Shown here: one piece after another, positions 40,346 to 60,678 of the stretch
Layout of the letters: each line of letters starts with the position of its first letter
Numbering within the stretch: position 1 is the first letter of the stretch
Source: Candidatus Colwellbacteria bacterium
Lineage (GTDB): Bacteria; Patescibacteriota; Minisyncoccia; UBA6257; Colwellbacteraceae
Length of the DNA stretch: 64,000 bases
Assembly: GCA_016176525.1 (NCBI GenBank)
Contig: JACOWZ010000003.1
Coordinates: 63,554-127,553 of the forward strand
Direction: 5' to 3'
Made by a program: the position numbers and the translations under genes
The notes under the pieces: model-generated
Database searches by the model: none
What the model was told of the DNA's origin: nothing
What the model saw: only the letters and a program-made list of their open reading frames with translations

Positions 40346-43300
40346 TTATTGTTCTTCCTCGTCTTTTACCGGCTCAACGACTAAGCCCAGTGCTTTTAAT
40401 TCATTCAACATTACCTTAAACGAAGCCGGGATGTTAGGCCTTTTAATTTTTTCTCCTCTTATTATAGATTCGTACGCTGCCGAGCGGCCCAAAACATCGT
40501 CAGATTTAATAGTTAGCATTTCCTGCAGAGTGTGCGCTGCTCCATAGCCTTCCAGAGCCCAGACCTCCATTTCTCCAAACCTTTGCCCTCCCTGTTGGGC
40601 TTTTCCACCAAGAGGCTGCTGGGTAATTAGAGAATACGGCCCAATTGAGCGCATATTAATTTTATCTACCACCAAGTGGTTAAGTTTCATCATATAAACA
40701 ACCCCTACTGTTGCGGCTCTATCAAAAGGTTCGCCGCTTCTACCATCATAAAGAATAACTTGGCCTGATTCCGGCAAGCCTGCGCTCTTCAACTCCTCCT
40801 TAATTTGTTCTTCAGAAGCACCCGCAAAAACCGGTGTTATTGCTCTGTAACCTAATTTCTTTGCAGCCCAACCCAAGTGCGTTTCTAATATTTGCCCCAA
40901 GTTCATACGAGATACAACACCTAATGGGTTTAAAACTATATCCACTGGCGTGCCGTCTTCCAAGTAGGGCATATCTTCTACTGGGCGCACGGTTGAAACA
41001 ACACCTTTGTTGCCGTGGCGACCAGCCATTTTATCTCCCGCTTGAATATTGCGAAGCTCTGCAACTTGTATCTGAATGCGCGAAATTATACCGGCATCTA
41101 ACTTATCTCCTTTGTCGCGCGAAAAGATTTTTACCCCAACAATACGCCCCGCCTTGCCGTGCGGCAATTCAAGAGATGTATCTTTAACATCACGGACTTT
41201 CTCGCCGAATATTGCGCGCAAAAGCCTCTCCTCGGCCGTAAGTTCACTCTCTCCTTTAGGAGAAATTTTGCCGACAAGTATGTCTCCACCGCGCACTTCG
41301 GCGCCGATGCGGACTATACCTTCTTCGTCTAAGTTGCGCAGTTTTTCTTCTGAAACATTTGGAATATCCGGGGTAGTAAGCTCTGGACCAAGTTTTGTAT
41401 CGCGGACGTCAACTTCAAACTCCTCAATATGCACAGAAGTGAATAAATCTTTTCTCTGCACAGCCTCCGAAAGAATAATAGCATCCTCAAAGTTGGCTCC
41501 TTCAAAAGACAAAAAAGCAACAACCAAGTTCTGGCCAAGCGCTAATTCGCCGTTGTCTATAGACTGGCCATCAGAGAGGGGTGTTCCCTTCTTAACTTTG
41601 TCGCCTTTACGCACAATCGGCCTTTGCGAAATAGACATATACTGGTTAGACATCTTAAATTTTGAGAGTTGGTACTCATCTTTTTTACCAGAGTCGGTTT
41701 TTACAACTACATGCAAGCCGTCCACCTCTACTACTGTGCCCGCATTTTTTGCGGTTACAATACTGCCTGAATTTTTAGCAACTACGCTCTCCATACCGGT
41801 TGAAACATAAGGCGCATCTGGCCTTACACAAGGCACAGCTTGCCTCTGCATGTTAGAGGCCATAAGCGCACGGTTTGCATCGTCGTGCTCCAAAAAAGGA
41901 ATTAAAGATGTAGCAACGCTTGTAAACTGGTTTGGCGCAACGTCTATAAAATCAATTTCTTCGGCTGGACATATACCAGGAGAACCGTAGATTCTCGCAT
42001 CAACGGTTTTGTCTAAAATCTTGCCATCGTCGCCAATTTTTACATTTGCAATAGCAATTTTATGTTTCTGTTCTGTAAGCGCGTCAAGCCAATGCAGATC
42101 TTTTGTTAATTTGCCCTTTTCTACTTTAATGTATGGGGTGACTAAAAAACCAAGCTCGTTTACTTTAACATAGCCAGCAAGCTGGTTTACCAAACCGATG
42201 TTTGCACCCTCTGGAGACTGAATAGGGCAAATTCTACCGTAGTAAGAAGTATGTACATCGCGCACCTCCATACCCGCCCGCTCACGTGTAAGCCCTCCGG
42301 GGCCCAAAAAAGTAATACGCCTTTTATGCTCCAATTCATCAAGAGGATTAACCTGTTGCATAAACTGCGACATTTGCGAAGAAGAAAAGAATTCTTTTAC
42401 AACAGATATTAAGGGCCTTGAGTTTACTAGTTGAACCGGCGTTACAGATTCTAAATCTGCTGTGGACATTCTATCTTGTATATTTCTTCTCATTCTGGAA
42501 AAACCAAGGCGCAGCCTTGACTGTAAAAGTTCGCCAACTGCCCTCACGCGCCTATTGCCTAAGTGGTCTATATCATCCGCTTCAGCTTTTGTATCTGCAT
42601 TCAACCGTATTATTTCACGGATAATTGCTACAATATCACCTGCTTCTAGGTTTTTGTTTTTTGATGTTGTCCCAAGCCTCTGGTTTAATTTAAATCTGCC
42701 TACTTTTGATAAGTCATATCTCTCTTCAGACAAAAGCATGCCGTCAATAAGTTTTTTAGCATCTTCCGCAGTTGCTAAATCTCCGGGGCGAATTCTTTTA
42801 TAAATCTCAATATAGGCGCTTTCTGCATCTTTTGCTGAATCTTTCTCTAAAGTAAGCCGTAACTCCTCACCAAACTCGCGCTTTATATCCGCCTCACTCA
42901 AACCAAAAACACGAAGAAGCGAAGTTACTGCAACTTTTCTGTGGCGGTCAATTTTAACCCCTATAAAACCCGAATAATCCGTTTCAAACTCAAGCCATGC
43001 TCCGCGACTTGGTATTAGCTTTGCTCCAAATAATTTTTTGCCTTTGTAAACATTCTCAACAAAATAAACACCTGGAGATCTTACAAGTTGCGAAATAACA
43101 ATGCGCTCCACGCCGTTTATAATAAATGTTCCGCGCGGTGTCATAATAGGGAAATCGCCAAAGTATATTTCCTGCTCTTTATTGTCTTTTGATTGTTTAT
43201 TTACAAGTTTAACTTTAACGCGCAGTGGTGCTTCGTATGTTATGCCTTTTGACACAGCTTCTTCTTCGGAGTATTTAGGGGAGTCAAAAAAATAATCTGT

Positions 43301-43480
43301 AAAATATAGCTCCAAATTTCGGCCTGCGTAGTCTTTTATGGCAGAAATTTCTTCGCAAAGCTCTTTTAAACCGGTTTTCAAGAACCACTCGTAAGACTCA
43401 AGTTGAATGTCAACTAAACCCGGCTGGGGCGTAAGCGGCCCTTTATACGAAGAGAAGTTTTTAACTTGTAGTTTTGGCAT
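40346..43480 (-). CDS. rpoB: DNA-directed RNA polymerase subunit beta
   Basis: 1044 aa with the conserved rif region, GEMEVWALEGYGAA and C-terminal clamp. Immediately upstream of rpoC. Confidence 0.97.
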   Translation of the reverse strand: MPKLQVKNFSSYKGPLTPQPGLVDIQLESYEWFLKTGLKELCEEISAIKDYAGRNLELYFTDYFFDSPKYSEEEAVSKGITYEAPLRVKVKLVNKQSKDNKEQEIYFGDFPIMTPRGTFIINGVERIVISQLVRSPGVYFVENVYKGKKLFGAKLIPSRGAWLEFETDYSGFIGVKIDRHRKVAVTSLLRVFGLSEADIKREFGEELRLTLEKDSAKDAESAYIEIYKRIRPGDLATAEDAKKLIDGMLLSEERYDLSKVGRFKLNQRLGTTSKNKNLEAGDIVAIIREIIRLNADTKAEADDIDHLGNRRVRAVGELLQSRLRLGFSRMRRNIQDRMSTADLESVTPVQLVNSRPLISVVKEFFSSSQMSQFMQQVNPLDELEHKRRITFLGPGGLTRERAGMEVRDVHTSYYGRICPIQSPEGANIGLVNQLAGYVKVNELGFLVTPYIKVEKGKLTKDLHWLDALTEQKHKIAIANVKIGDDGKILDKTVDARIYGSPGICPAEEIDFIDVAPNQFTSVATSLIPFLEHDDANRALMASNMQRQAVPCVRPDAPYVSTGMESVVAKNSGSIVTAKNAGTVVEVDGLHVVVKTDSGKKDEYQLSKFKMSNQYMSISQRPIVRKGDKVKKGTPLSDGQSIDNGELALGQNLVVAFLSFEGANFEDAIILSEAVQRKDLFTSVHIEEFEVDVRDTKLGPELTTPDIPNVSEEKLRNLDEEGIVRIGAEVRGGDILVGKISPKGESELTAEERLLRAIFGEKVRDVKDTSLELPHGKAGRIVGVKIFSRDKGDKLDAGIISRIQIQVAELRNIQAGDKMAGRHGNKGVVSTVRPVEDMPYLEDGTPVDIVLNPLGVVSRMNLGQILETHLGWAAKKLGYRAITPVFAGASEEQIKEELKSAGLPESGQVILYDGRSGEPFDRAATVGVVYMMKLNHLVVDKINMRSIGPYSLITQQPLGGKAQQGGQRFGEMEVWALEGYGAAHTLQEMLTIKSDDVLGRSAAYESIIRGEKIKRPNIPASFKVMLNELKALGLVVEPVKDEEEQ

Positions 43481-44194
43481 TTATTTTAAGTATTTGAAAA
43501 CATTTACATTGTGTTCATCTAAAGTTGTTGCAAAAATTGCTCGTTTGGTTTCTGGGTGTGTAATATAAAATAAAAAATTAGACTCCAGTGGGTCACTAGA
43601 AGCCGTAATTGATTCAATGCCGGGATTTGCAATGGGTGTCGGCGGCAACCCTTTGTACATATAGGTGTTGTACAGTGAATCAATCTCAAAATCCTTTTTC
43701 AAAATTGGGTGGCATGGGAGGGGCTTAACATAGCATATTGTTGCATCAACATGCAGAGCCTCATTCCTTCGCAAACGTTCTAAAAGAATGCCTGCAACCA
43801 ACCGTTTATCCTCTAAAGTTATAACTTCTTTTTCAAGAAGAGAGGCTAGAATAAGGGTTTCGTATTCATTTGATTCTGCAAGCAGGGGTGCGGCTTTTTT
43901 ATCAAAATTCTCTTTAAACCTAGCTAGCACTACCTCTGCGGTAGAGAATAAATAAAATTCGTAGGTATCAGGCAAAAGATAGCCTTCACTAGAGGAGGGT
44001 ATTACTTCCCCTTCGCGAAGAACATCCTCTGTAATAAGAAGATCGTTAATCTCCTGCGCTGTCATACCTTCTCTTATTAGTACAGATTTTACCGCGGCTA
44101 AGCTTGGGCCCCTTACTCCAAAATCTAAAAGCAGTAAAAGAACAATTGTGGCCAAAAGAACAGCCAGTTTAACAGAGGTTTTAGACATTATCAA
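43481..44194 (-). CDS. mltG: endolytic murein transglycosylase MltG (YceG family)
   Basis: N-terminal TM. EGYLLPDTYEF and NTYMYKGLPPTPIANPG family motifs. Confidence 0.8.
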   Translation of the reverse strand: MIMSKTSVKLAVLLATIVLLLLLDFGVRGPSLAAVKSVLIREGMTAQEINDLLITEDVLREGEVIPSSSEGYLLPDTYEFYLFSTAEVVLARFKENFDKKAAPLLAESNEYETLILASLLEKEVITLEDKRLVAGILLERLRRNEALHVDATICYVKPLPCHPILKKDFEIDSLYNTYMYKGLPPTPIANPGIESITASSDPLESNFLFYITHPETKRAIFATTLDEHNVNVFKYLK

Positions 44195-45267
44195 TACCCT
44201 GCGCGTCTTTTGGCAGTATGGAGTATGATACCTGTGAGGATTGCCACTGTCAAGAGGCTTGAACCGCCAAAGCTTATAAGCGGCAAAGTTATCCCTGTAA
44301 CCGGCAAAAGACCTAAATTAGAACCGATATTAACTATAAAATGGATTAAAAGCATAACACTTGTGCCTATAGATATAAACTTAAAAAAATTATTGTCCGA
44401 GGCCATGCCAATCTTCAAAATTCTAAAAATAAAGAAAACAAAAAGCGACACTAGAATAAAAGCGCCAAAAATCCCCCACTCTTCAACAAAAGCGGCAAAA
44501 GGAAAATCGGTTGCAGCGTTAGGCAAAAACCCGAGCTGGGCTTGAGTCCCCTGCCCAAAACCTTTGCCAAAAAAACCCGCAGAACCTATGGCAATCTTAG
44601 ACTGTATAACATTGTAGCTTATGCCAAGTGGGTCAATCTCTGGGTTTAAGAGGGCCATTACTCTGTCTTTCTGATAATCAGCAAGTCCGAAATTCCACAT
44701 AAAAATACCCAAGATAAAAAACGCTACAAGCATAATAAGAACAAACTTTGCCGGAATCTCGCTTGTAAGCAAAAATCCTGCCCAAATGCCAAGAATCATC
44801 AACGCAGTGCCCATGTCTGGGCCTAAAGCCGTAAATATGACAGCCGGCAAGAGATATATAAGTGAAATTACAATAATGCTTGGCCGTTTTATTGCAACGT
44901 GGCGCGAAGCAAAAAATTTAGCGAACAAAAGTATAAGAGCAATCTTCATAAATTCAGACGGTTGCAAACGAAAGTCTCCCACCGCAAACCACCTTTTAGT
45001 GCCCGCTATCTCTGGCGCAAAAAAATAAGCTGAGATTAATAAGAGAAGCGCTATAAAATAAACCCCGAATATTACCCATCTGTAGCTCAATATAGCCTTA
45101 AGATTAAAAATCGGCAGAGTAAGCACTATAAAAAAGGCAATTGCGGCAGATATTAATTGTTTTTGGAACAGCTCTATATTAAGAGATAGAAGATTTACAA
45201 GCCCAATGCTTAAAAGTAAAAGAAAGGAAACTAAAAGCCAGATGTCGTAATTCCTAATAAAATTCAT
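44191..45267 (-). CDS. FtsW/RodA/SpoVE-family peptidoglycan glycosyltransferase (SEDS)
   Basis: 358 aa, ~10 TM. Conserved …GSAGFFGKGFGQGTQ…LPNAATDFPFAAFVEEWG… SEDS loop. Confidence 0.85.
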   Translation of the reverse strand: MNFIRNYDIWLLVSFLLLLSIGLVNLLSLNIELFQKQLISAAIAFFIVLTLPIFNLKAILSYRWVIFGVYFIALLLLISAYFFAPEIAGTKRWFAVGDFRLQPSEFMKIALILLFAKFFASRHVAIKRPSIIVISLIYLLPAVIFTALGPDMGTALMILGIWAGFLLTSEIPAKFVLIMLVAFFILGIFMWNFGLADYQKDRVMALLNPEIDPLGISYNVIQSKIAIGSAGFFGKGFGQGTQAQLGFLPNAATDFPFAAFVEEWGIFGAFILVSLFVFFIFRILKIGMASDNNFFKFISIGTSVMLLIHFIVNIGSNLGLLPVTGITLPLISFGGSSLLTVAILTGIILHTAKRRAGY

Positions 45268-45277
45268 CTAACTAAAT

Positions 45278-46021
45278 TTATCTCGGAGGTACCTCGACCG
45301 CCGTATTAATATTAACTATATCGCGGCCTTGGAGTATTATACTAAACTCTAAATTCGCAAAAGCTTCAAGTGTAGGCGGCTCTAAAATTGAAGCGCTGAC
45401 AATAATGCCTTCGGCATTTAGCCCAACCACTATTATTTGCAATTTCTCATAAGCAACTGCTTCAATATTTACTACTTCTCCGGAAACAGTCGCTCCAGCA
45501 TCACTCTTATTAAGATTCAAATTAATAACATTTACCTCTGGCTGTGGTTTTACCTCATCTTTAGGCACCCAATTAGGTGAAGTTACAGTAAAGTCAATCC
45601 TGCCCACATCGGCGCTGTTGATATTAAAAAGCGGCATAGCAATATATTTCTGTGCCCTCGGTAAAAGCGACGTAACACCACCTAGGTTTGTAAGGCGCGG
45701 GCCAAATTTATGAAAAACCTCCAAATTATACTCCAATAAATTAGAGCCATAATTTTCACTTGGGTTTGAAATTCTAAGAAGAATTAATGTATCTCTCTCG
45801 CCTAGAGCGAAAGCTAAAACCTCGGAGCTTTCTACTTTAAGATTTTTTAGCTCGCATGGAATACATGGCCCGCCGCAATCAACATCAACTTCCTTCTGGT
45901 TTTTAATATTGTCAGAACACGAAGGGCTCTCATAAGAAATAGTATAGTAAATTCCAAAACCAATAAGAGATAATACTCCAGCAAAAAATAAGCCATAAAG
46001 AAGCTGTTTTATAAGTCTCAC
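45278..46021 (-). CDS. hypothetical membrane-anchored protein
   Basis: 247 aa with N-terminal signal anchor. Cys cluster CSDN…CGGPCIPC. No recognised domain. Confidence 0.5.
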   Translation of the reverse strand: MRLIKQLLYGLFFAGVLSLIGFGIYYTISYESPSCSDNIKNQKEVDVDCGGPCIPCELKNLKVESSEVLAFALGERDTLILLRISNPSENYGSNLLEYNLEVFHKFGPRLTNLGGVTSLLPRAQKYIAMPLFNINSADVGRIDFTVTSPNWVPKDEVKPQPEVNVINLNLNKSDAGATVSGEVVNIEAVAYEKLQIIVVGLNAEGIIVSASILEPPTLEAFANLEFSIILQGRDIVNINTAVEVPPR

Positions 46022-46033
46022 TTAAATATTATA

Positions 46034-48985
46034 CTACGGAATTACCAGAACGTGCGTGCCGGCAGTACTACCTACAACAGCATTTGTAGAAGGATCTGTG
46101 GCAGTTGCTTGAATAGAGATTGTGTAAGCGCCCGAGTCAACGCCGCTGCCTACAACAACTCCCATTGTGTAAGTGCAAGGCGATGAGAGCGATGGCTCAC
46201 AACCGCTAGTTGAGCCAAATGAAACAGTGATGTCTTCTGTGGGCGATACAGAACCAGCTAGAGATATATTAACAAAACCAAGCGTGCGCTTTGTTACATG
46301 TATGTTTGTAAGATACGCGCCAGATGTCGTTTGAATTTTTATTGCTGGGTCTGACGCAACAGTAAGGTTAGAAGAAACCACTAGAGTAAATGTTGTTTCC
46401 CCGCTTGCGCCAGTGCCAGCTTCCGTAGCGCTTAACGTAACAGAGTAAGTGCCAGGCAAAACATCTGCCGCTGTATTAATGGTCACTTCACGCGCGCATG
46501 GGTCCGTCGGGTCTAGAGAACAAGTTGAATTCGGCGAGAAGCTAACCGTTATGCCCGGGTTAGCCGGCGAAACAGTTGCAGACAAGCTTGCCGTCGAAGG
46601 CTCTGTTGTAATTTTTGTTACAGTAAGATTAGTCGAAGTAGATGAACCCTGCATTATTGTGTCTGACGGCGGATCCGCAAATATAACTATGCCGGAAGAT
46701 ACAACCAACTCAAATGTAGCAGCGCCTTTCTGTGTAGCATCACCAGACCCAAGAACCGTAATTGCATAGGTGCCAACAGGGGTTGCTGCGGTTGTTGTGA
46801 CGTTCAGGTCAATAGAACATGTAGGCGTGCAACTGGTTTCTGAAAGAGTCGCTGTAATCGTAGGTTCTGCAGGGTTAACTTGTGTAGATAGCGCCACCGG
46901 ACCTTGAGCTCCAGTAAGTTCGGCTACTGTAACAGAAGTTTCAGCGCTTCCACCGGAGGAAACCGTTGCAAGCGGCGGAACAGAAGCCATTACAATAGTT
47001 GAAGGGTTAACTGTAAGTTCATATACCGCTTCTGCCGTAGCGCCAGACCCAGCTTCAACCGCACTAACTTTTATTGTGTAGGCGCCGGCAGGAGTAAGAG
47101 CGGAAGTAATTATATTAATTGCAGATGCGCATGACTGCTCTGCCCCACCAGGCGTACATGTTGTTGGAGAAAATGTTGTAGAAATTGAAGGCTCTGCAGG
47201 GAAAACGCCGGCGGAGAAAGTAACTAATTGCGGAGAACCAGTAAGCTTTGTAACAGTAACCTCTGCTGAAGAGCTGCCGCCTTGGTCAATATTCCCTGCC
47301 ACGGGGTCAACTGTTGCGACAAGAGTTGAGCTTACAACCGCAAGCGTATAAGTGGTACTGCCGGTGTCTGTTCCACCAACGCCATTTCCGGTGATTGTAA
47401 TAGTGTACTGACCCATCGGCGTCTCTGGTGTTGTTGCAACAACCATATCTGAAGTGCAGTCAGGCTCTGGGTCGCAGCTAACCGGCGCAAGCGAAACTGC
47501 AACGGTTGATTCTGCAGGCAATACACTGCTTGTAAGAGAAACGTCCGCAGACTCCCCTGTAACTTGGTGGACACCTATGATAGATGCAGTAAACTCGCCT
47601 GCCACAACTGAACCGTGTGAAGGGCTAGAGTCTAAAACTATTGTCGCGGGTTCAATAACCAATGCATATGTTGTCTCTTTCGTATTACCGTTCGGATCGG
47701 TGCCTATAATTGTAATGTCATACGAACCCGCTGGGGTTTCTGGTTCGGTTGTAAGAAGCATTATAGATGCGCAACTATTTACAGCTGGATCTAGTGGATC
47801 ATTAGGAGTGCACGATACAGGGTTAAATGTTACACCTACGGTAGGTTCAGTGGGTAAGATGTTCGCAGAAAACCCAACCGCTGCAGGTAACCCTTGCAGT
47901 CTTGTAACGACAACGCTACTTGTTACATCACTACCTTGGCCAACTTCCGAAGTTGACGGGTCAGCTTCAATACTAAAATCAAAACTGTTGACGGTTAGGG
48001 TGTAGACTGCAGACTGGTACTCGCCGCTTGTCGCCTCTGTGCCAGTAATTGTAATATCATAGTTGCCCGGAGGGGTAAGCGTTGTTGTTGAAACTGTCGC
48101 GTTAGAGGTGCAGGGTATTTCTATTGTCGGCATGCAAGAAGAAGGGTCAAATGCAACAGATACGCTAGCTTCTACAGGACTTACTTCGTATGAAAATGCC
48201 ACACTCTGCGGTACACCCGTGAGTTTGGCCACTGTTACTGTTGTATCTGCACTCTCTCCCGGATCAACAGATTCCCCGGATGGATCAACCGAAATTATAA
48301 ATGTTGAGGGCTCATAGAAACCTTCGTAGTAGCTTTGGTAGTAGCCTTGGCCATAGTAATAGCCTTGGCTGTAGTAGTAGCCTTGGTAGTAGCCCTGATA
48401 ATAACCTTGGCTGTAGTAGTAGCCTTGGCCATAGTAATAGCCCTGATAATAGCCTTGAGAGTAATAGTAGCCTTGGCCATAGTAATAGCCCTGATAATAG
48501 CCTTGAGAGTAATAGTAGCCTTGAGAGTAATAGTAGCCTTGGTAGTATCCCTGATAATAGCCTTGATAATAGCCCTGCGTGTAGTAAACACCCTCGGAGT
48601 AATAAAGGGCTTGGTAATAACCTTGATAGTAGCCTTGGGTGTAGTAAACGCCTTGGGTGTAGTAGATACCCTGGTAATAGCCTTCGGAGTAATAAAGGGC
48701 TTGGTAATAACCCTCATAAAGACCTTCGTAGTAGCCTTGAGAATAGCCGCCTCCACCTCCTCCTCCGCCTCCACCTCCTCCGCACCCGAGCTCAAACATT
48801 CTACCTGCTGAATCTCCATCAGTTTCACCATCAGTAGTAAGGGCTAAAAACTCTATATTATCATCGCATTCTATTAAAACCGCCTCAGCAGTATTAACCG
48901 CGGTTGTAACCGCGGCTAAAAAAGAGAGAGAAACAACGCCTAAAAATGCAAATCGTATTAGCGTTGTATTCTTTTTGAGCTTCAT
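46034..48985 (-). CDS. giant secreted surface protein: signal peptide, Gly12 tract, Tyr/Gly/Gln-rich repeat domain, then ~8 tandem Ig-like beta-sandwich domains
   Basis: 983 aa. Residues 69-80 are GGGGGGGGGGGG. Residues 81-226 are (G/S/Q)YY(Q/E/S)G-type repeats with ~45 % Tyr. Downstream ~90-aa modules recur with pattern …VTV.KLTG.PQ.V.FS…P.EP.I…F.P..CTP…C…T….G.Y.ITI…. Confidence 0.75.
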   Translation of the reverse strand: MKLKKNTTLIRFAFLGVVSLSFLAAVTTAVNTAEAVLIECDDNIEFLALTTDGETDGDSAGRMFELGCGGGGGGGGGGGGYSQGYYEGLYEGYYQALYYSEGYYQGIYYTQGVYYTQGYYQGYYQALYYSEGVYYTQGYYQGYYQGYYQGYYYSQGYYYSQGYYQGYYYGQGYYYSQGYYQGYYYGQGYYYSQGYYQGYYQGYYYSQGYYYGQGYYQSYYEGFYEPSTFIISVDPSGESVDPGESADTTVTVAKLTGVPQSVAFSYEVSPVEASVSVAFDPSSCMPTIEIPCTSNATVSTTTLTPPGNYDITITGTEATSGEYQSAVYTLTVNSFDFSIEADPSTSEVGQGSDVTSSVVVTRLQGLPAAVGFSANILPTEPTVGVTFNPVSCTPNDPLDPAVNSCASIMLLTTEPETPAGSYDITIIGTDPNGNTKETTYALVIEPATIVLDSSPSHGSVVAGEFTASIIGVHQVTGESADVSLTSSVLPAESTVAVSLAPVSCDPEPDCTSDMVVATTPETPMGQYTITITGNGVGGTDTGSTTYTLAVVSSTLVATVDPVAGNIDQGGSSSAEVTVTKLTGSPQLVTFSAGVFPAEPSISTTFSPTTCTPGGAEQSCASAINIITSALTPAGAYTIKVSAVEAGSGATAEAVYELTVNPSTIVMASVPPLATVSSGGSAETSVTVAELTGAQGPVALSTQVNPAEPTITATLSETSCTPTCSIDLNVTTTAATPVGTYAITVLGSGDATQKGAATFELVVSSGIVIFADPPSDTIMQGSSTSTNLTVTKITTEPSTASLSATVSPANPGITVSFSPNSTCSLDPTDPCAREVTINTAADVLPGTYSVTLSATEAGTGASGETTFTLVVSSNLTVASDPAIKIQTTSGAYLTNIHVTKRTLGFVNISLAGSVSPTEDITVSFGSTSGCEPSLSSPCTYTMGVVVGSGVDSGAYTISIQATATDPSTNAVVGSTAGTHVLVIP
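48305..48781 (-). repeat. tandem 12-18-nt coding microsatellite-like repeats (Tyr/Gly/Gln domain plus Gly12 tract)
   Basis: Iterated units such as tagtagccttggccatagtaatagccctgataatagccttgagagtaa… on the plus strand, translating to GYYQGYYYSQGYYY… on the minus strand. Confidence 0.75.
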
Positions 48986-49112
48986 AATAGTTAAAACTTA
49001 AATTTTAAGCTCTATGAACGTAAGCCTATACCAAATGTTTAATATAGGTCAACAAACACATGTGGATAACTTCTTTAGTATATTAATTTATAAATGTTTT
49101 TCCGGTTTTTAA

Positions 49113-49142
49113 TAAAAAATGCCCCAATAATTTTATTGGGGC
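49113..49142 (-). terminator. rho-independent terminator after the metalloprotease gene
   Basis: TGCCCCAATAA-tttt-TTATTGGGGCA hairpin followed on the minus strand by TTTTTTATT. Confidence 0.55.
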
Positions 49143-49158
49143 AGATGGGTAGATAGGG

Positions 49159-50415
49159 CTAGAACCTCTTCATGCCTTCCGGAATACATGTTGATGTCCA
49201 GCTCGTTTTGGGAATGAAGACTTCGTCGTCGTACAGCTTGTCGTTTTTGATCGGTTCCCGCCAGTCGTATGCTTCGGCCAGCGCGAACAGATCAAGGTTC
49301 GACAGGCAATTGCGTTCATTCCACTTGTGGCCGGTCATTACGTCGTCCGGTTGGTTTTTGAAACAGCCATAGCGCGGAGAGCAGTGGGTGGTTTCAGGCC
49401 AAGCTCCAGAGTGTCCGGCGCCGATGCAGTGGCCGAATTCATGGAGAACCAAGTTGCGTAGATCCACCGGCTGTTGGCTGTTTTGGTACTCGCCGATACC
49501 CTCGTGTTTGGTGATGCAGACTGGTTTTCCGGAATTCAGAGGGTTGCTTTCCCAGCGCGCTTCCCCGCTATGTTTTACGAAAGGGATTGGATCTCCGACC
49601 ATCGCGATAGCGATTAGAATGTCGGCGGTCCTCACCTCTTCCGGCCCAGCGTTGTATCCGGCAACCTTGATTGTCCAGGAAAGGCCGGAGAGCTGGGTGA
49701 ATTGCTGGGAGTTTTCAGCCAGGAACCATTCCCAGTATTCCGCCGCTTCCATGGCGGCTTGAACCGCGGGGTGCCGATAGGTCGCATCCGGTCCGATCCA
49801 GCTCTGGTTTTGGACCATTGCTCGGACCGAAAAATATGCGGGGGGCAAGATGACAACCTTCAGACCAACCGGTTGCACGGGGATTTTGTAGCCCCACATG
49901 TACCAGTGTGTCTCGGGCGACAGAATCTTGATTTTGATCTCCGCGTTTGCGGTTTGATCAAATTCATCTTCTGCTGAGACTTGTACGATGTAGTCACCCG
50001 CCTCTGCATAGGTATACGTCGGCTCCTTGTCGGTCGCGGTTTCTCCGTCGCCGAAGTTCCATCGAATTGTCGTTATCTTCGACGATAAGGTTTCGGCTCG
50101 GAACAGCACATTTTTCCCCTGCAATGCGGTGTATCCGTCGATATCGCGCATGATATCAGTTCCGATGACCGCTAGATTTAAGACTAGCGGTTGCACTACC
50201 GGTACACTTTCTGGCGTCTTGGGTGTTTCTACCTCCGGTGTATCGGGAGGCGGCTTCGTAATCTGTTCTTCCGGCTCCTCCGGTGGCAATACAGGTTCTG
50301 CAGTTTCTGTCTTCTCTGTGACAATGATTTCGGGTTTGCTTCCCACACAACCGCTCAAGAGCGCCTGTGCAAGAAAAACCGCAAAGACCACCGCACAAAT
50401 GTTTTTCTGGTTCAT
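49159..50415 (-). CDS. lipoprotein with PKD domain and C-terminal metzincin-type zinc metalloprotease domain (matrixin/serralysin-like HExxHxxGxxH)
   Basis: Lipobox LLSGC. PKD signature IRWNFGDGETATDKEPTYTYAEAGDYIVQVSAED. Zinc motif VLHEFGHCIGAGHS. Gene is conspicuously GC-rich versus flanks, and many spurious ORFs overlap it on both strands. Confidence 0.75.
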   Translation of the reverse strand: MNQKNICAVVFAVFLAQALLSGCVGSKPEIIVTEKTETAEPVLPPEEPEEQITKPPPDTPEVETPKTPESVPVVQPLVLNLAVIGTDIMRDIDGYTALQGKNVLFRAETLSSKITTIRWNFGDGETATDKEPTYTYAEAGDYIVQVSAEDEFDQTANAEIKIKILSPETHWYMWGYKIPVQPVGLKVVILPPAYFSVRAMVQNQSWIGPDATYRHPAVQAAMEAAEYWEWFLAENSQQFTQLSGLSWTIKVAGYNAGPEEVRTADILIAIAMVGDPIPFVKHSGEARWESNPLNSGKPVCITKHEGIGEYQNSQQPVDLRNLVLHEFGHCIGAGHSGAWPETTHCSPRYGCFKNQPDDVMTGHKWNERNCLSNLDLFALAEAYDWREPIKNDKLYDDEVFIPKTSWTSTCIPEGMKRF

Positions 50416-50523
50416 TCAGGTTTCACCCTTGTTAAGAAAACTAAGTATAGGCTAGCACATTACATGTGTTTTGTCAAAGTATTGACCGATTTTTTTTAGG
50501 GTGATACTATTTAAAAATCAAAA

Positions 50524-50976
50524 ATGAAAAACAAATTATTAATATTTTCAGGTTTGGCGCTCATCGCAATTTTTCTAGGGCTTTTTATCACAATTGGACC
50601 GGCTTTAAATAACAACACATCCGACGGCCCCAAAGTAACAGATGTATTAAATACTCCCGGGCAAGACGCAACCGACGAGGAAAGGCGGCAACATTTTGAA
50701 CTCGCCGCAATGTTGGCAGAAGAAGCAGATTTGCTTGATATTACTGGCTGCAAAGCAGACCCAGTTGTACTTAAACTTACAGACCAAGAAACTTTTGGAG
50801 TAAAAAATGATGATATTGTCCCACACGTTTTGAGAATAAGCGACGAAATAGAGTTTACAGTAGAGGCAAACTCTACGACTGGGCTTAAAGCAGACTTTGG
50901 GCATGGAGTTGGGCTCTATGGTTATGGATGTGATGGATCCACCGGCGCAATAGGGCTTTTTTTGGTAACTTTCTAA
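50524..50976 (+). CDS. small membrane-anchored protein with cupredoxin-like beta-sandwich domain (putative)
   Basis: 150 aa. N-terminal TM. Region CKADPVVLKLTDQETFGVKNDDIVPHVLRISDEIEFTVEAN…FGHGVGLYGYGCDG resembles the cupredoxin-like N-domains of the two downstream paralogs. Confidence 0.45.
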   Translation: MKNKLLIFSGLALIAIFLGLFITIGPALNNNTSDGPKVTDVLNTPGQDATDEERRQHFELAAMLAEEADLLDITGCKADPVVLKLTDQETFGVKNDDIVPHVLRISDEIEFTVEANSTTGLKADFGHGVGLYGYGCDGSTGAIGLFLVTF

Positions 50977-50985
50977 AAAATATCT

Positions 50986-52251
50986 TTGGATATGCCGAAC
51001 CCATCGCAAAAGAATAAAAGCGGGGCAACGGCAATGTCGCTTCTTATATCTTCTGTAAGCATAATAATTCTTGCAGAAGTCTGGATGCTTTTGGGGTTTA
51101 AAATACCTATTCCCTTTTTTGACACTGCAACTCTCTATGCTTCGGAAATTAAATATTTAGAAGATAACAATCTCTCTTTTTACGAACTTGCAAAATATTT
51201 TACAAAAATCTCTAATGAAGAAGGCGCAGAATATGCCTATAATCTATTAAAAATTGCGCCAATCCCACCAAATACGGATATGCACCTCCTTGGGCATGTT
51301 GTTAGCGATGAATTATACAAACAAAAAGGCAGCGAGGGCATAAAAATTTGTACGCCGGACTTTAGAAATGCATGCTCGCACTCAATCGTGGTTGGGTTAT
51401 TACTAGAAAAAGGCGATTCCGCAATGGACGAAATATCCGAAGCGTGCCGCCTTGCGCCCGGGGGCAGGGGCGCATACACTATGTGCTTCCACGGTTTGGG
51501 CCATGGCGTGCTTGCCTACAGCGACTATGACATGCAGGATGCTGTTGAGCTTTGCGCAACAACCGGCACAAAGGAATATCTCCAAAGAGAATATATTGAG
51601 TGCGTTGGCGGAACAGTTATGGAAATTGTCGGCGGCGGATTCCATAACCAAGAATTGTGGCAAAAAAAATCGGATGAATATTTAAGTGTGTCTGACCCGC
51701 TTTATCTATGCTCAAAAGAAATAATGCCCGAAATAGCGCAAGCACAGTGTTATACATATTTAACTCCGCATCTTTTTAAACGCGCTGGCGGCAGTTTAAG
51801 TAATTTAACTCCCGATGTTTATGAGCGCGCGTTTGTATATTGCGAAGGCATACCAAAGAGTGAAGCTTCTTTAAGGGCAAGTTGCTATGGTGGATTTGGC
51901 AAGGAATTCGTTGTGCTCGCAAAAGCGCGAGATGTTCGCCAAATTGGCAATATGACAGACGAAGAACTTGCGAAGGTGTACGAATGGTGCAGTTTAGCGC
52001 CGCATAGCGAGGGTATAAACGCGTGTATTAATACATCCGCGGCTTCAATATTTTGGGGCGGCGAAAATGAACCTGTTGCTGTTATTAAATTTTGCAGTAT
52101 TGTGGAGGACACTTCTATACAGCAAGAATGTTTTGCGAACCTCTTTAATTCCGTAAAGTATTACATAAATGACCTTGCTTATTTAGAAAATTTTTGTGCA
52201 AAAGTACCGAATAATTATAAAGGCACTTGCGAAGAAAAATTAGTAAACTAG
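50986..52251 (+). CDS. Cys/His-rich membrane-anchored paralog 1 (CxHGxGHG family, unknown function)
   Basis: 421 aa. TM at ~17-38 (alternative start ~51034). Motifs HLLGHVVSDELY, ACSHSIVVGLL, MCFHGLGHGVLAY. Many paired Cys. Confidence 0.65.
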   Translation: MDMPNPSQKNKSGATAMSLLISSVSIIILAEVWMLLGFKIPIPFFDTATLYASEIKYLEDNNLSFYELAKYFTKISNEEGAEYAYNLLKIAPIPPNTDMHLLGHVVSDELYKQKGSEGIKICTPDFRNACSHSIVVGLLLEKGDSAMDEISEACRLAPGGRGAYTMCFHGLGHGVLAYSDYDMQDAVELCATTGTKEYLQREYIECVGGTVMEIVGGGFHNQELWQKKSDEYLSVSDPLYLCSKEIMPEIAQAQCYTYLTPHLFKRAGGSLSNLTPDVYERAFVYCEGIPKSEASLRASCYGGFGKEFVVLAKARDVRQIGNMTDEELAKVYEWCSLAPHSEGINACINTSAASIFWGGENEPVAVIKFCSIVEDTSIQQECFANLFNSVKYYINDLAYLENFCAKVPNNYKGTCEEKLVN

Positions 52252-52255
52252 AGAT

Positions 52256-53299
52256 ATGAAAGCATATAAAATATTAGGAATAGCTGGAGCAGTGGTTTTT
52301 ATAATTTTAGGTTTTTTTGCAGTTATAAATTTTAGCACAAACTCTCACGATAAATACCCCTTATCTTCCGGTACGGCAAGTTCTAATGGAGCGATGAACC
52401 CGGTAGAAGAACGCAATAAGTGGGCAGGGCTTATTGATAAATTTGGGCCGGAGTATGCATACGCCGAATTTAAAAAAGAATATGCACCTACCCACTTTGG
52501 AATTCAGCACGCCGCCGCGCACTTGGTTGGAGAATTACTGTACGACAAACTTGGCGTAGATGGAGTAACGGTTTGCGACTCCACTTTTGCATTCGGGTGC
52601 TACCACAGCTTTTTTGGCAAAGCTCTTGCAGTAAATGGATTGAGTATAATTAAAAAACTTGATGAGGCATGCATTCAAGCATACGGCCCGCTTGGCACAG
52701 GATGCACGCACGGCATAGGCCACGGGCTGGTGGAATATTTTGGCCACCAACAATTAATTAAAGCACTTGAGGCTTGTACGCTTACAACGCAGGTAAAAAA
52801 GCTCTTTGGCTGCACATCTGGCGTATTTATGGAATACAACGTGCCAATTGTGTTTGATGGCCCAACTGCGAAAACAGAAATTAGAGAACTTAATGCCGCA
52901 AATCCGCACGAGCCGTGTAATACAATTGTGCCGGAGAAATTCAGAGAATCTTGCTACTACGAAATGGGCCAATGGTGGGATAAAGTTTTTAATAAAGATT
53001 ACAAACACATTGGACTCTTATGCGAAGAAGCGCAATCTGAATACAGAGAACCGTGTTATTTAGGTATAGGCAATGTTGCCGCGCCGTCAAATGAATATAA
53101 TGTACAAGAAACTATAAATACATGTCTTCTTATGCCAAATGAAGATGCAAAACTCTTATGTAGGGCAGGGGCATCTTGGAGTTTCTTTGCAGTGCCCGAG
53201 CAGAGGCAACTATCCCCTAAACTTTGCGAAGGTTTGGTAAGCGCAGAAACACACAGGTGCGCGCAAAAAGCCGACCTTATTGGAGTTGGAAGAACATAA
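52256..53299 (+). CDS. Cys/His-rich membrane-anchored paralog 2
   Basis: 347 aa. N-terminal TM. QHAAAHLVGELLY, GCYHSFFGKALA, GCTHGIGHGLVEY in the same order as paralog 1. Confidence 0.65.
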   Translation: MKAYKILGIAGAVVFIILGFFAVINFSTNSHDKYPLSSGTASSNGAMNPVEERNKWAGLIDKFGPEYAYAEFKKEYAPTHFGIQHAAAHLVGELLYDKLGVDGVTVCDSTFAFGCYHSFFGKALAVNGLSIIKKLDEACIQAYGPLGTGCTHGIGHGLVEYFGHQQLIKALEACTLTTQVKKLFGCTSGVFMEYNVPIVFDGPTAKTEIRELNAANPHEPCNTIVPEKFRESCYYEMGQWWDKVFNKDYKHIGLLCEEAQSEYREPCYLGIGNVAAPSNEYNVQETINTCLLMPNEDAKLLCRAGASWSFFAVPEQRQLSPKLCEGLVSAETHRCAQKADLIGVGRT

Positions 53300-53304
53300 A
53301 TAAA

Positions 53305-54513
53305 ATGCTAAAACGTTACCTTATAACCGGCCTCTTAATAATACCAATCAGTTTAATTGGATTTTTGTCTTACCAAAATGGAGGCACGGCTTATGTTGTA
53401 AGCCCTTTACAGCTTGAAGCTTATGCCAACGAAGTGATAGAAATATGTACGAATGATTCTTACAGGCCGTCTTGCTATGACAAAGAGATACCAAAGCTGA
53501 TGGACAATATATCTATGGAAGATGCTTTTAAAGTTACTGTAATTATTCAGCAAAAAGACACATCATACCCGTACTGCCACGTACTTGGGCATAACTTAAG
53601 TGCAAGAGAAGTACAAAAAGACCCATCCAACTGGAAAGAAGTCTTAGCGCGATGCCCCAGTGGAGTTTGCTCAAACGGATGTTTACACGGCGGCTTGCAG
53701 GAAAAATTCCGCGGTGAATACCCAACAGAAGAAGAATTGGTAGCTCTAAAGCCGGACCTCTTCAACATTTGTGAGAAAAAAGAAAACTGGAACCCTACCG
53801 GCCTTGAGCAAGCGTCTTGCTACCATGCCCTCGGGCACTTATCTATGTATCTTACAAAGGCTGATATTTATAAATCTCTAGATCTTTGCAAAGAGATGGC
53901 GCTAAAACCCGACGGTAGAGATTATCAGCAACTTTGCTTTGACGGGGCATTTATGCAGATCTTTCAGCCGTTGGAACCGGAAGATTTTGCGCTTGTTGAG
54001 GGCAAAGAGCCGGCGAAAGAAGAAGTATATTCTTTTTGCAGCAAGTTTACAGGACAGCAAAGAGGTTCGTGCTGGAGTGAGACTTGGCCTTTATTTAGAG
54101 AGGAACTGCAAAAACCGGAAGGCCTTGTGGCGCACTGTGAGAAATCAGATCTGGCTGAACGACAGAGATGCTACAATGCGCTTGTTTATGTTCTAACTGC
54201 ACAATTCAGTTTTGATTCGGAACGCATTAAAAACTACTGCTCTGGCCTTCCTGCAGGCACGAGAGAACTCTGTTTTGCAAACGCTTCGTCACGAATGATA
54301 GAAACTGACTACAGGAACATAGACTTAGCGGTACAACTCTGCAGCGAAGCAGCGCTATTTGATAAAGATGGTGAGTGCTTCCAAGAACTTATTAAATATT
54401 CAACATTTAATTTCCATGCCGGATCTGAACAATTCTTTAAAATATGCAACGCTATGCCAGAACCTTGGAGTAGTAAGTGTTTAAACAACCCAAACGCTAA
54501 TTATGCCAATTAA
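53305..54513 (+). CDS. Cys/His-rich membrane-anchored paralog 3
   Basis: Probable start MLKRYLITGLLIIPISLIGFL at 53305 (ORF track 53224 overlaps paralog 2). YCHVLGHNLSAREV, GCLHGGLQEKF, SCYHALGHLSMYL. Confidence 0.65.
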   Translation: MLKRYLITGLLIIPISLIGFLSYQNGGTAYVVSPLQLEAYANEVIEICTNDSYRPSCYDKEIPKLMDNISMEDAFKVTVIIQQKDTSYPYCHVLGHNLSAREVQKDPSNWKEVLARCPSGVCSNGCLHGGLQEKFRGEYPTEEELVALKPDLFNICEKKENWNPTGLEQASCYHALGHLSMYLTKADIYKSLDLCKEMALKPDGRDYQQLCFDGAFMQIFQPLEPEDFALVEGKEPAKEEVYSFCSKFTGQQRGSCWSETWPLFREELQKPEGLVAHCEKSDLAERQRCYNALVYVLTAQFSFDSERIKNYCSGLPAGTRELCFANASSRMIETDYRNIDLAVQLCSEAALFDKDGECFQELIKYSTFNFHAGSEQFFKICNAMPEPWSSKCLNNPNANYAN

Positions 54514-55966
54514 ATTAATAGCCGCTATATTTGTACCGGCAATAATAGGAATAGGATTCTTGGCAATGCCCGATCCAGAAAACAAGACCAACCTAACCAA
54601 TAATGTTTATATAGTAGAGCTTAAAGATGATGGATTTTACCCAATGGAGATTACTGTACAAAAGGGCGACTCGGTAAAATTTATAAGTGATGCATACGAT
54701 TATTTCTGGCCTGCAAGCGACCCGCACCCAACCCACGAGTTTTTAGGCGGCTTTGACCCAGAAACTGCAATTGAACGCGGTGAAAGCTGGGCTTACACTT
54801 TCAATGAAACCGGATCTTGGAACTACCATGACCACATCCACGTATCATTTAAAGGGACTATAAATGTTGTGAGTAATTCTTCGCAACAAGAAACTTCGCT
54901 TACAGAAGATTGCGAATCCGTAACAGACGAGAATAAGAAAGCATATTGCTGGTACGAAGCCATTAAAGATAAGGCGAAAAATCAGAGTATTGACGCAGCA
55001 TTTTCATTATTTACAAAAGTTTATGCAGAGGGAGCTCCCCTAGGCTGCCACTGGACATCGCACTTAATTGGAGAAGAAGCTTTTAAGAAATTTATAGAAG
55101 GCGAAAGGTTCCAAATTACGAACGCAACATCTTATTGCGGGTATGGCTTTTACCACGGCTTTATGGAGCCGTTGCTCCGTAAAAATCCAGATACAAAGCT
55201 TGCCATTGATTTTTGCGAAGAAGTAGCGCGGCAATTGGGAGACGACGGCAGAAACAACTGCTACCATGGCATCGGCCACGGCTTTAGCGAAGACCCGCCG
55301 CCAGCGGAGACTTTTGGGAACGCGAACCTAATGGCGAGGCCGGGCTTAAGCGTTTGCGAAGGTTTATTTGAAAAAGTTTCCCAGAGGTATTTGGAAACTT
55401 GCGCAACTGGCGTATACACTGTTGTCGCCCATTTTATAGAAGAAGGGCTCTATGGGTTGGAGAAGCTGGATCACCACGACCCGTTTAAATTTTGCAGAAC
55501 ACAACCCAAAAAATATGAAGTTGCATGCCATGGAGAATTTGCTCCAAAATTAGACTTAATAACAAACTGGGATGTTTCAAAAGTGCCAAGCTTTATAGGC
55601 GAACTAGAGGATGTATACACTAAAGAAATAGTAATAAGAGGAGCAGTTGGAGCAATGATGCAAAGGGACGTAGCTAAAAAAGATCATACAGCTTATATTC
55701 TAGGCTGTAGAACATTTCCAGAAGACCTACGCATTATTTGCCTTAAGGGTATTGTTTGGGGATTTATGATGCACGGATTACCCGAACAAGAGTACATAAA
55801 ACTATTGAAATTCTGCGAATCACCGATGACAAAAGTTGAAGAAAACTTCTGCTATACAGAAAGCTTTTCCAGATTCAAGGCAGTTTATGCCCCGGGAAAA
55901 TTCCAGACGATATGCTCTCTAGACGACAAATATAAAGAGTATTGCAACACAGCAAATGAAAACTAA
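54503..55966 (+). CDS. Cys/His-rich paralog 4 with N-terminal cupredoxin-like domain
   Basis: 487 aa. TM, then ~95-aa beta-sandwich-like domain (FYPMEITVQKGDSVKFISDAYDYFWPASDPHPTHEF…WNYHDHIHVSFKGTINVV). Then GCHWTSHLIGEEAF, YCGYGFYHGFMEPLL, NCYHGIGHGFSED. Confidence 0.65.
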   Translation: MPIKLIAAIFVPAIIGIGFLAMPDPENKTNLTNNVYIVELKDDGFYPMEITVQKGDSVKFISDAYDYFWPASDPHPTHEFLGGFDPETAIERGESWAYTFNETGSWNYHDHIHVSFKGTINVVSNSSQQETSLTEDCESVTDENKKAYCWYEAIKDKAKNQSIDAAFSLFTKVYAEGAPLGCHWTSHLIGEEAFKKFIEGERFQITNATSYCGYGFYHGFMEPLLRKNPDTKLAIDFCEEVARQLGDDGRNNCYHGIGHGFSEDPPPAETFGNANLMARPGLSVCEGLFEKVSQRYLETCATGVYTVVAHFIEEGLYGLEKLDHHDPFKFCRTQPKKYEVACHGEFAPKLDLITNWDVSKVPSFIGELEDVYTKEIVIRGAVGAMMQRDVAKKDHTAYILGCRTFPEDLRIICLKGIVWGFMMHGLPEQEYIKLLKFCESPMTKVEENFCYTESFSRFKAVYAPGKFQTICSLDDKYKEYCNTANEN

Positions 55967-57529: not shown

Positions 57530-57580
57530 ATCAAAGATTTCCAAATTTAGAACAAACATTGTAATGACCAGTTTCTCACT

Positions 57581-60678
<3,098 letters not shown>

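Follow-up and report, generated by a model that had tools for sequence, protein, structure and literature searches.

Layout of the gene and its protein

We analyzed a gene for a tyrosine-rich surface protein, here called the target, in a stretch of 64,000 nucleotides (nt), referred to as the window (contig JACOWZ010000003.1, positions 63,554 to 127,553). The host is a tiny groundwater bacterium, a Candidatus Colwellbacteria member of the Candidate Phyla Radiation (CPR, or Patescibacteria), the group in whose genomes the tyrosine (Tyr) repeat described below is mainly found. Eight proteins encoded around the target are identical to NCBI proteins from a metagenome-assembled genome of Candidatus Colwellbacteria. 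The open reading frame (ORF; 46034..48985, minus strand) encodes 983 amino acids (aa) plus the stop codon in a single frame with no disruption; its length does not make it the "giant" protein named in the sequence-only reading of the window. From its position between HYS87_00685 and a PKD gene, the target is probably HYS87_00690 at NCBI. The exact sequence and a variant starting at M63 are both missing from a collection of 15 billion proteins in which the flanking genes are present, and the NCBI accessions of these flanking genes, MBI2013339 and MBI2013341, leave one number free between them. Either the deposited protein differs from the target or it was dropped from the collection.

The first 35 residues (MKLKKNTTLIRFAFLGVVSLSFLAAVTTAVNTAEA; 48881..48985, minus strand) form, according to hydropathy, a putative export signal or signal-anchor. 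A basic n-region and an A-E-A motif can be read there, and the sole hydrophobic segment of the protein lies at about aa 7–33 (Kyte-Doolittle value above 1.6 in the 19-residue windows that start at aa 7–15). Next comes an acidic segment of 33 residues (aa 36–68; 48782..48880, minus strand) with nine Asp or Glu and one Arg, flanked by C40 and C68; the Gly12 tract had been read as lying straight behind the signal peptide, which overlooked this segment. The tract itself (aa 69–80; 48746..48781, minus strand) is encoded by an exact 18-nt tandem duplication, and shorter Gly runs precede the repeat in the relatives P0046, P0057, P0058, L022 and L033.

The Tyr-repeat module (aa 81–225, 145 aa; 48311..48745, minus strand) consists of YY and YYY runs separated by (x)Q/E-G spacers. 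It contains 65 Tyr residues (44.8%), 20% Gly, 16.6% Gln and 6.2% Ser, and these four residues together make up 87.6% of the tract; Gly12 and a domain of about 150 residues with about 45% Tyr had been correctly noticed before. Lys, Arg, His and Asp are all absent, and a few Glu are the sole charged residues. The 29 Tyr runs comprise 19 YY, eight YYY and two single Tyr, with QG, SQG and GQG as the main spacers. Tyr accounts for merely 2% of the other 758 residues of the protein, and no second Tyr-rich stretch was found in any frame of the window. The remainder (aa 226–983; 46037..48310, minus strand) is composed of seven tandem Ig-like beta-sandwich modules, as seen from alignment, AlphaFold2 (AF2) and Foldseek.

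As judged from these features, the target would be an exported, strongly acidic cell-envelope protein with a signal or anchor, a Cys-bracketed acidic segment, a Gly12 hinge, a Tyr module and a rigid stalk of Ig domains that contain disulfides. Nothing in Pfam, NCBIfam or PHROGs matched it above threshold, and CW_binding_1 (choline- or cell-wall-binding repeats), SLH and LysM gave no Pfam match at E≤1. A search for homologues of the full-length protein returned no close relative, and only the Ig modules were matched, with 25–43% identity. We rejected a sortase-anchored LPXTG adhesin, as the protein ends in ...AGTHVLVIP and has no C-terminal hydrophobic segment.

DNA of the repeat and independent contigs

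The sequence-only reading had described the tract as a near-perfect array of 12–18-nt DNA repeats and expected it to be hypervariable by slippage, and neither description fits most of the array. Tandem Repeats Finder (TRF) returned many overlapping periods, mostly with 56–83% matches; the 19 QGYY units are encoded by 10 different DNA versions, and the Tyr codons of the tract are 37 TAC and 28 TAT. The only long exact DNA repeat is a perfectly periodic core of 107 nt (about 48417..48523, minus strand) with a 48-nt (16-aa) unit, which contains a 59-nt exact direct repeat at 48-nt offset (TRF period 48, 90–93% matches, 2.9–3.6 copies). The Gly12 DNA (48747–48781; TRF period 18, 1.9 copies, 100% matches) is likewise exact. 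Because most of the array differs at synonymous sites, selection on the peptide is indicated and not recent slippage, and, judging from the sequence, slippage is plausible only in the 107-nt core and in the Gly tract.

Two Logan contigs from run SRR12113430 (L001 and L002) and one from run SRR12113383 (L170) are 100% identical to the window over 40496–48446 and 48494–56415. Since they come from two runs, they independently support the flanks, the frame and most of the repeat. All three stop inside the exact core, at 48445/48446 and 48494, and the copy number of the 48-nt (16-aa) unit is not independently supported; any change in it would stay in frame. Between the upstream PKD gene and the target lies a terminator-like hairpin with a 10-bp stem and a T run (49120..49143, minus strand), so the target probably begins its own transcription unit.

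The Tyr repeat recurs across the CPR

As marks of the family we took a Tyr content of 35% or more in a stretch of 40 residues or longer, with YY/YYY runs and (x)Q/E-G spacers, together with an N-terminal export signal, signal-anchor or pilin-type leader, a CPR genome and the A150/B/C cluster described below within a few kb; the target shows them all, the export signal as read from hydropathy. Its tract has 44.8% Tyr over 145 aa and the same QG, SQG and GQG spacers as the pooled ORFs. Besides the target, 83 Tyr-rich ORFs in 80 loci were obtained with the same composition and YY(Y)-x-Q/E-G grammar. Their pooled tracts contain 43.5% Tyr, 17.9% Gly, 16.1% Gln and 8.9% Ser, with YY more frequent than YYY and with spacers declining in the order QG, SQG, GQG and AQG. 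Several genomes carry at least two Tyr-repeat genes each.

A degenerate DNA pattern for QGYYQGYY, which occurs eight times in the window and 0 times in shuffles, was found at 55 loci in 185,579 GTDB species-representative genomes, and a Tyr-rich ORF is present at 35 of them. Among these 35 loci of named genomes, 27 are labelled as CPR (Patescibacteria, Saccharibacteria, Taylor-, Doudna- and Nomurabacteria, Paceibacterota, Parcubacteria), three as unnamed "bacterium" and five otherwise. Three of the latter five look like mis-binned CPR contigs: two metagenome-assembled genomes labelled "Gammaproteobacteria" (L016 and L034) also carry the CPR gene cluster described below, and another contig of 3 kb mirrors a Paceibacterota locus. 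As to the 20 pattern loci with no Tyr-rich ORF, 18 are chance matches outside the CPR. In JGI metagenomes the same pattern yielded 107 loci, and in IMG/VR it yielded one locus with a single match; a phage origin was rejected, given this one locus and the lack of a PHROG match to the target.

Protein searches were also carried out. With the N-terminal 238 aa as query, small secreted proteins with (S/G/T/A)QGYY(Y) repeats were matched, among them proteins of Parcubacteria C7867-004 (with CARDB) and of Spechtbacterales. A phmmer search of the repeat against 1.84 billion representative proteins gave 13 matches at E≤1e-3, about half of which are unrelated eukaryotic or other repeats (P0087–P0092, P0094); phmmer is a poor census tool for this repeat because of the bias correction in HMMER. 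The domain had been called untypical of bacterial proteins, and with 13 matches in 1.84 billion this is right for bacteria in general but overlooks the secreted proteins of CPR, in many of which the module recurs. Pfam, NCBIfam and PHROGs hold no model for the Tyr repeat, for which the sequence-only reading had proposed a database search. The literature that we searched contains no account of the repeat motif, nor of tyrosine-rich proteins in CPR or Patescibacteria.

Partner domains and positions of the repeat

Within the CPR secretome, the Tyr repeat is a promiscuous module specific to this lineage, and it is kept at the peptide level. Its partner domains include N_methyl pilin, PT-HINT, CARDB, Bact_surface_Ig-like, GBS_Bsp-like and InlB B-repeat. 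In many proteins it stands straight after the signal peptide, often behind a short Gly run or a Cys pair. It is also found at the extreme C-terminus of proteins of 800–990 aa (L024, L031, L038, L041), whose N-terminus looks peptidoglycan-binding-like by eye only and has no Pfam match, and in C-terminal position on pilin-like proteins (P0056, P0059, P0065, L008, L036). Further positions are between Cys knots and ahead of CARDB, Bact_surface_Ig-like, GBS_Bsp-like or InlB B-repeat domains.

The commonest architecture is a signal peptide, in some cases a Gly run, the Tyr repeat and a conserved domain of about 170 aa (SKGSGTFVIDHPLDPKNKLLYHSFVESPDVKNIYDG...). It was seen in nine proteins (P0046, P0054, P0055, P0057, P0058, P0061, P0063, P0076, P0077) and nine loci (L009, L017, L019, L022, L033, L053, L054, L058, L059). 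This partner domain has no match in Pfam, NCBIfam or PDB, apart from one PDB match at chance level (E 0.085), and one weak match to a PHROG of unknown function. In five loci (L023, L047, L142, L156, L157) the motif (I/V)(V/I)PASC(P/E)S..H..G(E/D)C stands directly before the repeat, and its PASC...C Cys pair parallels the C40...C68 bracket of the target.

In L016 (at about 1173–2411) and L025, the repeat runs straight into a Hint/PT-HINT autoprocessing domain, and the junction reads ...YY(F)QGSY|CF.(A/P)(D/G)T.(I/V)LMADGTTK. After self-cleavage by Hint, the Tyr tract would become a new C-terminus and would possibly be transferred to another molecule. Small membrane-anchored Tyr-repeat ORFs with a Cys/Gly/Asp-rich tail (GCGSCGGGCDSCSGGDDDDGC) occur in L102, L108, L131 and L132, and the Tyr-repeat ORFs of L023/L086 lack this tail. 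Near the repeats of all these loci we noticed a TPR gene, a 552-aa protein that is possibly YcaO-like and a 303-aa SagB/nitroreductase-like protein (by eye, unconfirmed). The association of the repeat with these YcaO-like, SagB-like and TPR genes is weak, as the loci are few and near-duplicate.

A six-gene cluster linked to Tyr-repeat genes

By clustering the ORFs that flank Tyr-repeat genes, we found that the commonest neighbour families are homologues, with 30–64% identity, of six genes beside the target. These genes, A150, B421, B347, B429, C487 and C476, lie at 50524–57386 on the plus strand, 1.5 kb from the start of the target, which is thus within a few kb of the cluster. At least one cluster family is present in 31 of the 80 Tyr-rich loci versus three of 83 other scan loci, and two of these three positive controls are Tyr-repeat proteins below the cutoff. 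For Tyr-rich loci of at least 6 kb the count is 25 of 46. Of the cluster-bearing loci, 29 count as independent when the limit is set at <90% nucleotide identity. The cluster genes keep the order B421-B347-B429-C(-A150), and the median gap between a Tyr-repeat gene and the closest of them is about 1 kb. Four loci, L024 (a complete genome), L041, L109 and L123, have the Tyr-repeat gene next to the cluster on the same strand. The linkage tracks the repeat itself, since it holds across all partner-domain classes. The Tyr repeat and this conserved cluster for membrane-anchored, Cys/His-rich proteins are coupled in the genome.

All six proteins are annotated as "hypothetical" at NCBI (A150 is HYS87_00700), and each has one N-terminal hydrophobic segment and an even number of Cys (2–20). 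A150 (50524..50976, plus strand), the first gene, encodes a small membrane-anchored protein with a cupredoxin-like C-terminal part. Its homologues in 10 Tyr-repeat loci are 34–45% identical, with C76, H101, C136 and D137 conserved, and one of them has a weak Cupredoxin_1 match.

The next three genes, B421 (50986–52251), B347 (52256–53299) and B429 (53224–54513, with the real start likely at an ATG near 53305), all on the plus strand, encode N-terminally anchored Cys-rich paralogues with the signature HxxxH...H...CxHxxxH. They are 23–29% identical to one another, and their homologues in 18–25 Tyr-repeat loci show 44–64% identity. The last two, C487 (54503–55966, plus strand) and C476 (55956–57386, plus strand), combine an N-terminal cupredoxin domain with the same Cys/His-rich domain, here called the B/C domain. 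In 63 sequences of this domain of about 350 aa, from 30 sources, H132, H169, H173 and eight Cys never vary (100%), while H100 and H104 are kept in 97–98%. No relative of the B/C domain was found in Pfam, NCBIfam or PDB. Any resemblance to tyrosinase or other type-3 copper proteins would lie in the motifs HxxxH...H and CxHxxxH; there was neither a Pfam Tyrosinase nor a PDB match.

The cupredoxin domain of the C type carries invariant WPAS(D/N)xHPxH and HDH motifs with four invariant His. A profile of six sequences matched Cu-nitrite reductase (8e-8), amicyanin (2e-6), plastocyanin and laccases (about 1e-3), and the homologue L063 passes Pfam Cupredoxin_1 with 28.3 bits against a cut-off of 27, which places C487 and C476 among homologues of the cupredoxin fold. 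The HPxH and HDH motifs align with FHGTH and HCH of nitrite reductase and multicopper oxidases. As in amicyanin, plastocyanin and domain 1 of Cu-nitrite reductase and multicopper oxidases, the position of the first His ligand and the two Cys-flanking His are kept; unlike known cupredoxins, the domain is joined to a Cys/His-rich domain of 350 aa for which no relative is known. A type-1 blue copper protein was rejected, as the His-Cys-His-Met ligand set was not found. A multicopper oxidase or laccase was rejected as well, for there is one cupredoxin domain with HPxH and HDH only and not four HxH; Cu-oxidase_3 scored 20.6 against a cut-off of 21 in one C homologue. A non-type-1 metal site in C487 and C476 is plausible from the retained residues. 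In the literature on cupredoxins in CPR we found only proposals of electron carriers for NirK. The Tyr-repeat module, the B/C domain and their linkage all appear to be undescribed.

The Ig-like modules

The bounds of the seven modules are aa 226–333, 334–445, 446–551, 552–660, 661–763, 764–870 and 871–983. They are 103–113 aa long and 24–46% identical pairwise; in each, a conserved Cys pair closes a loop of 3–12 residues, and P, V, P, C, C, G, Y and L are the invariant residues of their alignment. AF2 with an alignment of 33 sequences predicted an eight-strand beta sandwich (predicted local distance difference test, pLDDT, 97.9). The best Foldseek match in PDB is the Ig-like linker of a Micromonospora sialidase (1wcq; E 4e-5, TM 0.70), and peptidase Vpr and the S-layer protein SbsC (8jmw; 4uid) are further best matches. 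The sequence-only reading had seen a surface protein in which a low-complexity Tyr/Gly-rich domain precedes tandem Ig-like, Cys-containing modules, and had asked for a structure prediction of the latter. The analysis supports this layout for a secreted or surface protein, and the predicted fold agrees with Cys-containing beta sandwiches, with the correction that there are seven modules and not about eight.

No Pfam model exceeded its gathering score on the modules; FlgD_ig reached 23 bits (cut-off 27) and DUF4625 13.5 bits. A hidden Markov model of the seven modules found 163 domains in 44 proteins, mostly in C-terminal arrays of acidobacterial S53/kumamolisin peptidases, parts of which are labelled DUF5980, I-set or MG2 by Pfam. 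With arrays of the DUF5980/PF19410 type, SbsC and the sialidase linker, the target modules share the fold and a profile-level similarity, and a TP-x-G-x-Y-x-I-T-I motif, seen by eye in the module sequences, is a further likeness to tandem Ig-like arrays. The conserved Cys pair is absent from most relatives and present only in the modules of P0003. In its fold, the Ig stalk is ordinary and falls within a known class.

A proposed sticker module with a possible accessory cluster

The explanation that we consider best, with about an even chance of being right, is that the target is an exported protein whose Tyr tract acts as a sticker and joins a Tyr-rich layer, with the cluster as accessory machinery. 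The uncharged tract with 45% Tyr would serve as a multivalent aromatic "sticker". Probably as a beta-rich structure, it would associate with the Tyr repeats of similar proteins or with surface glycans and in this way build or join a Tyr-rich layer outside the cell, with the Ig stalk projecting from that layer. The His-rich, cupredoxin-bearing neighbours would be the best candidates for assembling the layer or for stabilising it by oxidative Tyr-Tyr coupling. Composition, context and analogy are what suggest self-association, glycan binding and cross-linking here; the dityrosine cross-linking or phase separation named in the sequence-only reading is a hypothesis, to which the linked cluster with its cupredoxin and His-rich proteins lends some indirect support.

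Three known systems come nearest to the target in composition or logic, and it could be assigned to none of them. First, the SYGQ domains of the FET proteins (FUS/EWSR1/TAF15), whose tyrosines act as self-association stickers, use nearly the same four-letter alphabet with few charges and regularly spaced Tyr. The target tract has no homology to them, has YY/YYY runs, and belongs to an extracellular bacterial protein in which it lies between Cys and Ig domains; Tyr density is roughly 12% in FUS versus about 45% here. With zero [G/S]Y[G/S] motifs in the tract, a prion-like domain of the FET type was rejected. Second, curli (csgBAC/csgDEFG) and Pseudomonas fap likewise have a secreted protein with imperfect repeats of Gly, Gln, Ser and aromatic residues and an accessory cluster nearby. 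As in curli, the cluster is divergently arranged, and AF2 gives weak beta hairpins in the target repeat. The target differs in its units of 4–6 residues against strand-loop-strand units of 19–23, in its unrelated accessory proteins and in the lack of an outer-membrane secretion channel. No Curlin or Fap model and no csg or fap genes were found in the target or its neighbours with Pfam and NCBIfam, and a functional amyloid of this type was rejected. Third, CotC, CotU and CotG of Bacillus subtilis are Tyr-rich coat proteins that are cross-linked in a surface layer alongside the CotA laccase. Such coat proteins are small, rich in Lys and Asp, without signal peptide and from Firmicutes, unlike the target, and CotA has three domains as against the single cupredoxin without a type-1 site in C487 and C476. 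CotC and CotU were not among the matches of the N-terminal or phmmer repeat searches, in which no reference coat sequences were compared. A collagen-like (Gly-X-Y)n repeat was also rejected, for the Gly-Gly spacing is 4 (14 times) or 6 (8 times) and never 3.

Several observations weigh against the proposal of a sticker layer. The grammar shared by the 83 ORFs is partly built in, since the comparison loci were fetched by a motif derived from the target. The linkage is measured without a proper CPR background, with controls that are mostly non-CPR and with cluster copies per CPR genome uncounted. In the window itself, the cluster lies on the opposite strand, and one unrelated gene stands between it and the target. 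The cupredoxins of C487 and C476 have Asp in place of the type-1 Cys and Phe or Leu in place of Met, and the position of the second His is variable. No C-terminal anchor is recognisable in the target, so its orientation on the cell is uncertain. AF2 of aa 36–260 without an alignment has low confidence (mean pLDDT 51); it places strands and hairpins through the repeat, with 10-residue block means of 66–75 over about aa 156–205, which is a weak hint of beta propensity. The Ig module of the target type occurs in none of the 83 other Tyr-rich ORFs, so that the fusion is so far unique to the target. Finally, the target lies upstream of a block made of a 247-aa protein, RodA and, in some cases, MltG, and in three distant relatives no Tyr-repeat gene stands upstream of this block; the target is therefore no conserved part of it, and the fusion is young and may be peripheral to the system.

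Another explanation is that the repeat is an adhesive tip, whose Tyr would stack on sugars of a host wall, a capsule or an environmental polysaccharide and attach the CPR cell or its pili, with the cluster unrelated or merely co-regulated. We regard this as unlikely but live. CPR are known epibionts, all partner domains are of adhesin type, and in several architectures (the pilin-like proteins and the C-terminus of the 800–990-aa proteins) the repeat is far from any obvious anchor. In the target and in the commonest architecture, however, it adjoins the N-terminal signal and is not distal; the AF2 model of the repeat has no fold like a carbohydrate-binding module, and the His/Cys-rich cluster that accompanies the repeat in all architectures is left unexplained.

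A sharper form of the last step of the sticker-layer proposal, which we consider rather improbable, makes the repeat a substrate of copper-dependent oxidation: the cupredoxin-bearing and His-rich proteins would form dityrosine or DOPA-quinone cross-links and so harden a coat or cement. Physical linkage of Tyr-repeat genes to the cluster is consistent with this, as are the true cupredoxin homology with the His aligned to HCH and FHGTH kept, the five near-invariant His of the B/C domain and the extracytoplasmic location and even Cys counts of all the proteins; Tyr-rich coat proteins of Bacillus with CotA are a precedent. Yet C487 and C476 have one cupredoxin domain where laccase has three, and HPxH plus HDH where four HxH are expected; no Pfam tyrosinase or multicopper oxidase matched above threshold, and the oxidant may be lacking, as many groundwater CPR are regarded as fermenters that live without oxygen.

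That the tract is a neutral spacer made by slippage between the membrane and the Ig stalk is very improbable. It does sit between the Gly12 hinge and the stalk, the exact 48-nt core and the exact 18-nt duplication point to recent expansion, and AF2 confidence for the repeat is low; a neutral spacer would not, however, account for the same composition and grammar in 83 ORFs of distant CPR lineages, the heavy synonymous variation among identical peptide units, the complete exclusion of Lys, Arg, His and Asp or the linkage to a conserved cluster. An assembly artefact or pseudogene has next to no probability: two independent short-read assemblies do break in the repeat, and the exact protein is missing from a collection that holds both its neighbours, but three contigs from two runs match the flanks with 100% identity, the signal and seven confidently folded modules share one frame across the repeat, the exact stretch is only 107 nt with a period that is a multiple of three and would be spanned by 150-nt reads, and the same module occurs in 80 other loci. 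Family-wide conservation, synonymous variation and independent contigs thus disfavour both of these explanations and leave the adhesive tip in play beside the sticker layer.

There is a real chance that the module and the cluster form a new CPR-specific system. A fuller version is that the Tyr-repeat proteins and the A150/B/C cluster are one unrecognised extracellular system of CPR, in which the repeat would be a tag that recruits its passengers (Ig, pilin, CARDB, peptidoglycan-binding-like, Hint) into a layer or cement, and a new family of membrane-anchored metalloproteins with a five-His domain, some of them also with a cupredoxin that lacks the type-1 site, would assemble or oxidatively cross-link it; we put this forward tentatively, as possible though doubtful. 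CPR or Patescibacteria account for a large part of bacterial diversity and live attached to other cells, and for most of the proteins on their surface no function is known. A module nearly confined to CPR, together with an unnamed cluster bearing putative metal sites, offers a way into their surface-layer or attachment apparatus. To our knowledge, almost all studies of aromatic-rich low-complexity "sticker" domains concern the inside of eukaryotic cells, and the repeat would be a bacterial, extracellular counterpart to this theme. At least three families (the repeat, the B/C domain and A150) and the 170-aa partner domain are missing from Pfam and NCBIfam. If true, the joint system would be a molecular basis for the way in which ultra-small epibionts build their surface and stick to hosts.

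Other genes of the window

The gene between the target and the cluster (49159..50415, minus strand) encodes a lipoprotein-like PKD protein with an LLSGC lipobox and a metzincin motif, HEFGHCIGAGH (PKD 1.9e-12; Peptidase_M10 weak). It has no homologue in any other Tyr-repeat locus, and it is unchanged in three sequencing runs.

Downstream of the target and on the same strand, there follow a 247-aa protein, RodA, MltG/YceG, rpoB and rpoC. The 247-aa membrane protein (45278–46021, minus strand), with the motif CxxxxxxxxxxxxxCGGPCIPC, starts 12 bp past the target stop. It has only three distant relatives (32–33% identity), which are found directly upstream of RodA, and it may act with the elongation machinery as a partner specific to CPR.

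The 23S and 5S rRNA genes lie at 57419–60665 (minus strand), and there is no 16S gene in the window, so 16S appears to be unlinked from 23S/5S. Two further genes are of the low-complexity surface type: one at 4356–6614 (minus strand) encodes 752 aa with a (PPAQQ)n tract and several repeats that by eye resemble fibronectin III, and the other at 6727–8100 (plus strand) encodes 457 aa with a high content of Pro and Glu (PEPEP...) and a hydrophobic segment close to the C-terminal third. These two genes explain the GC-rich, AT-skewed stretch at 6–8 kb.

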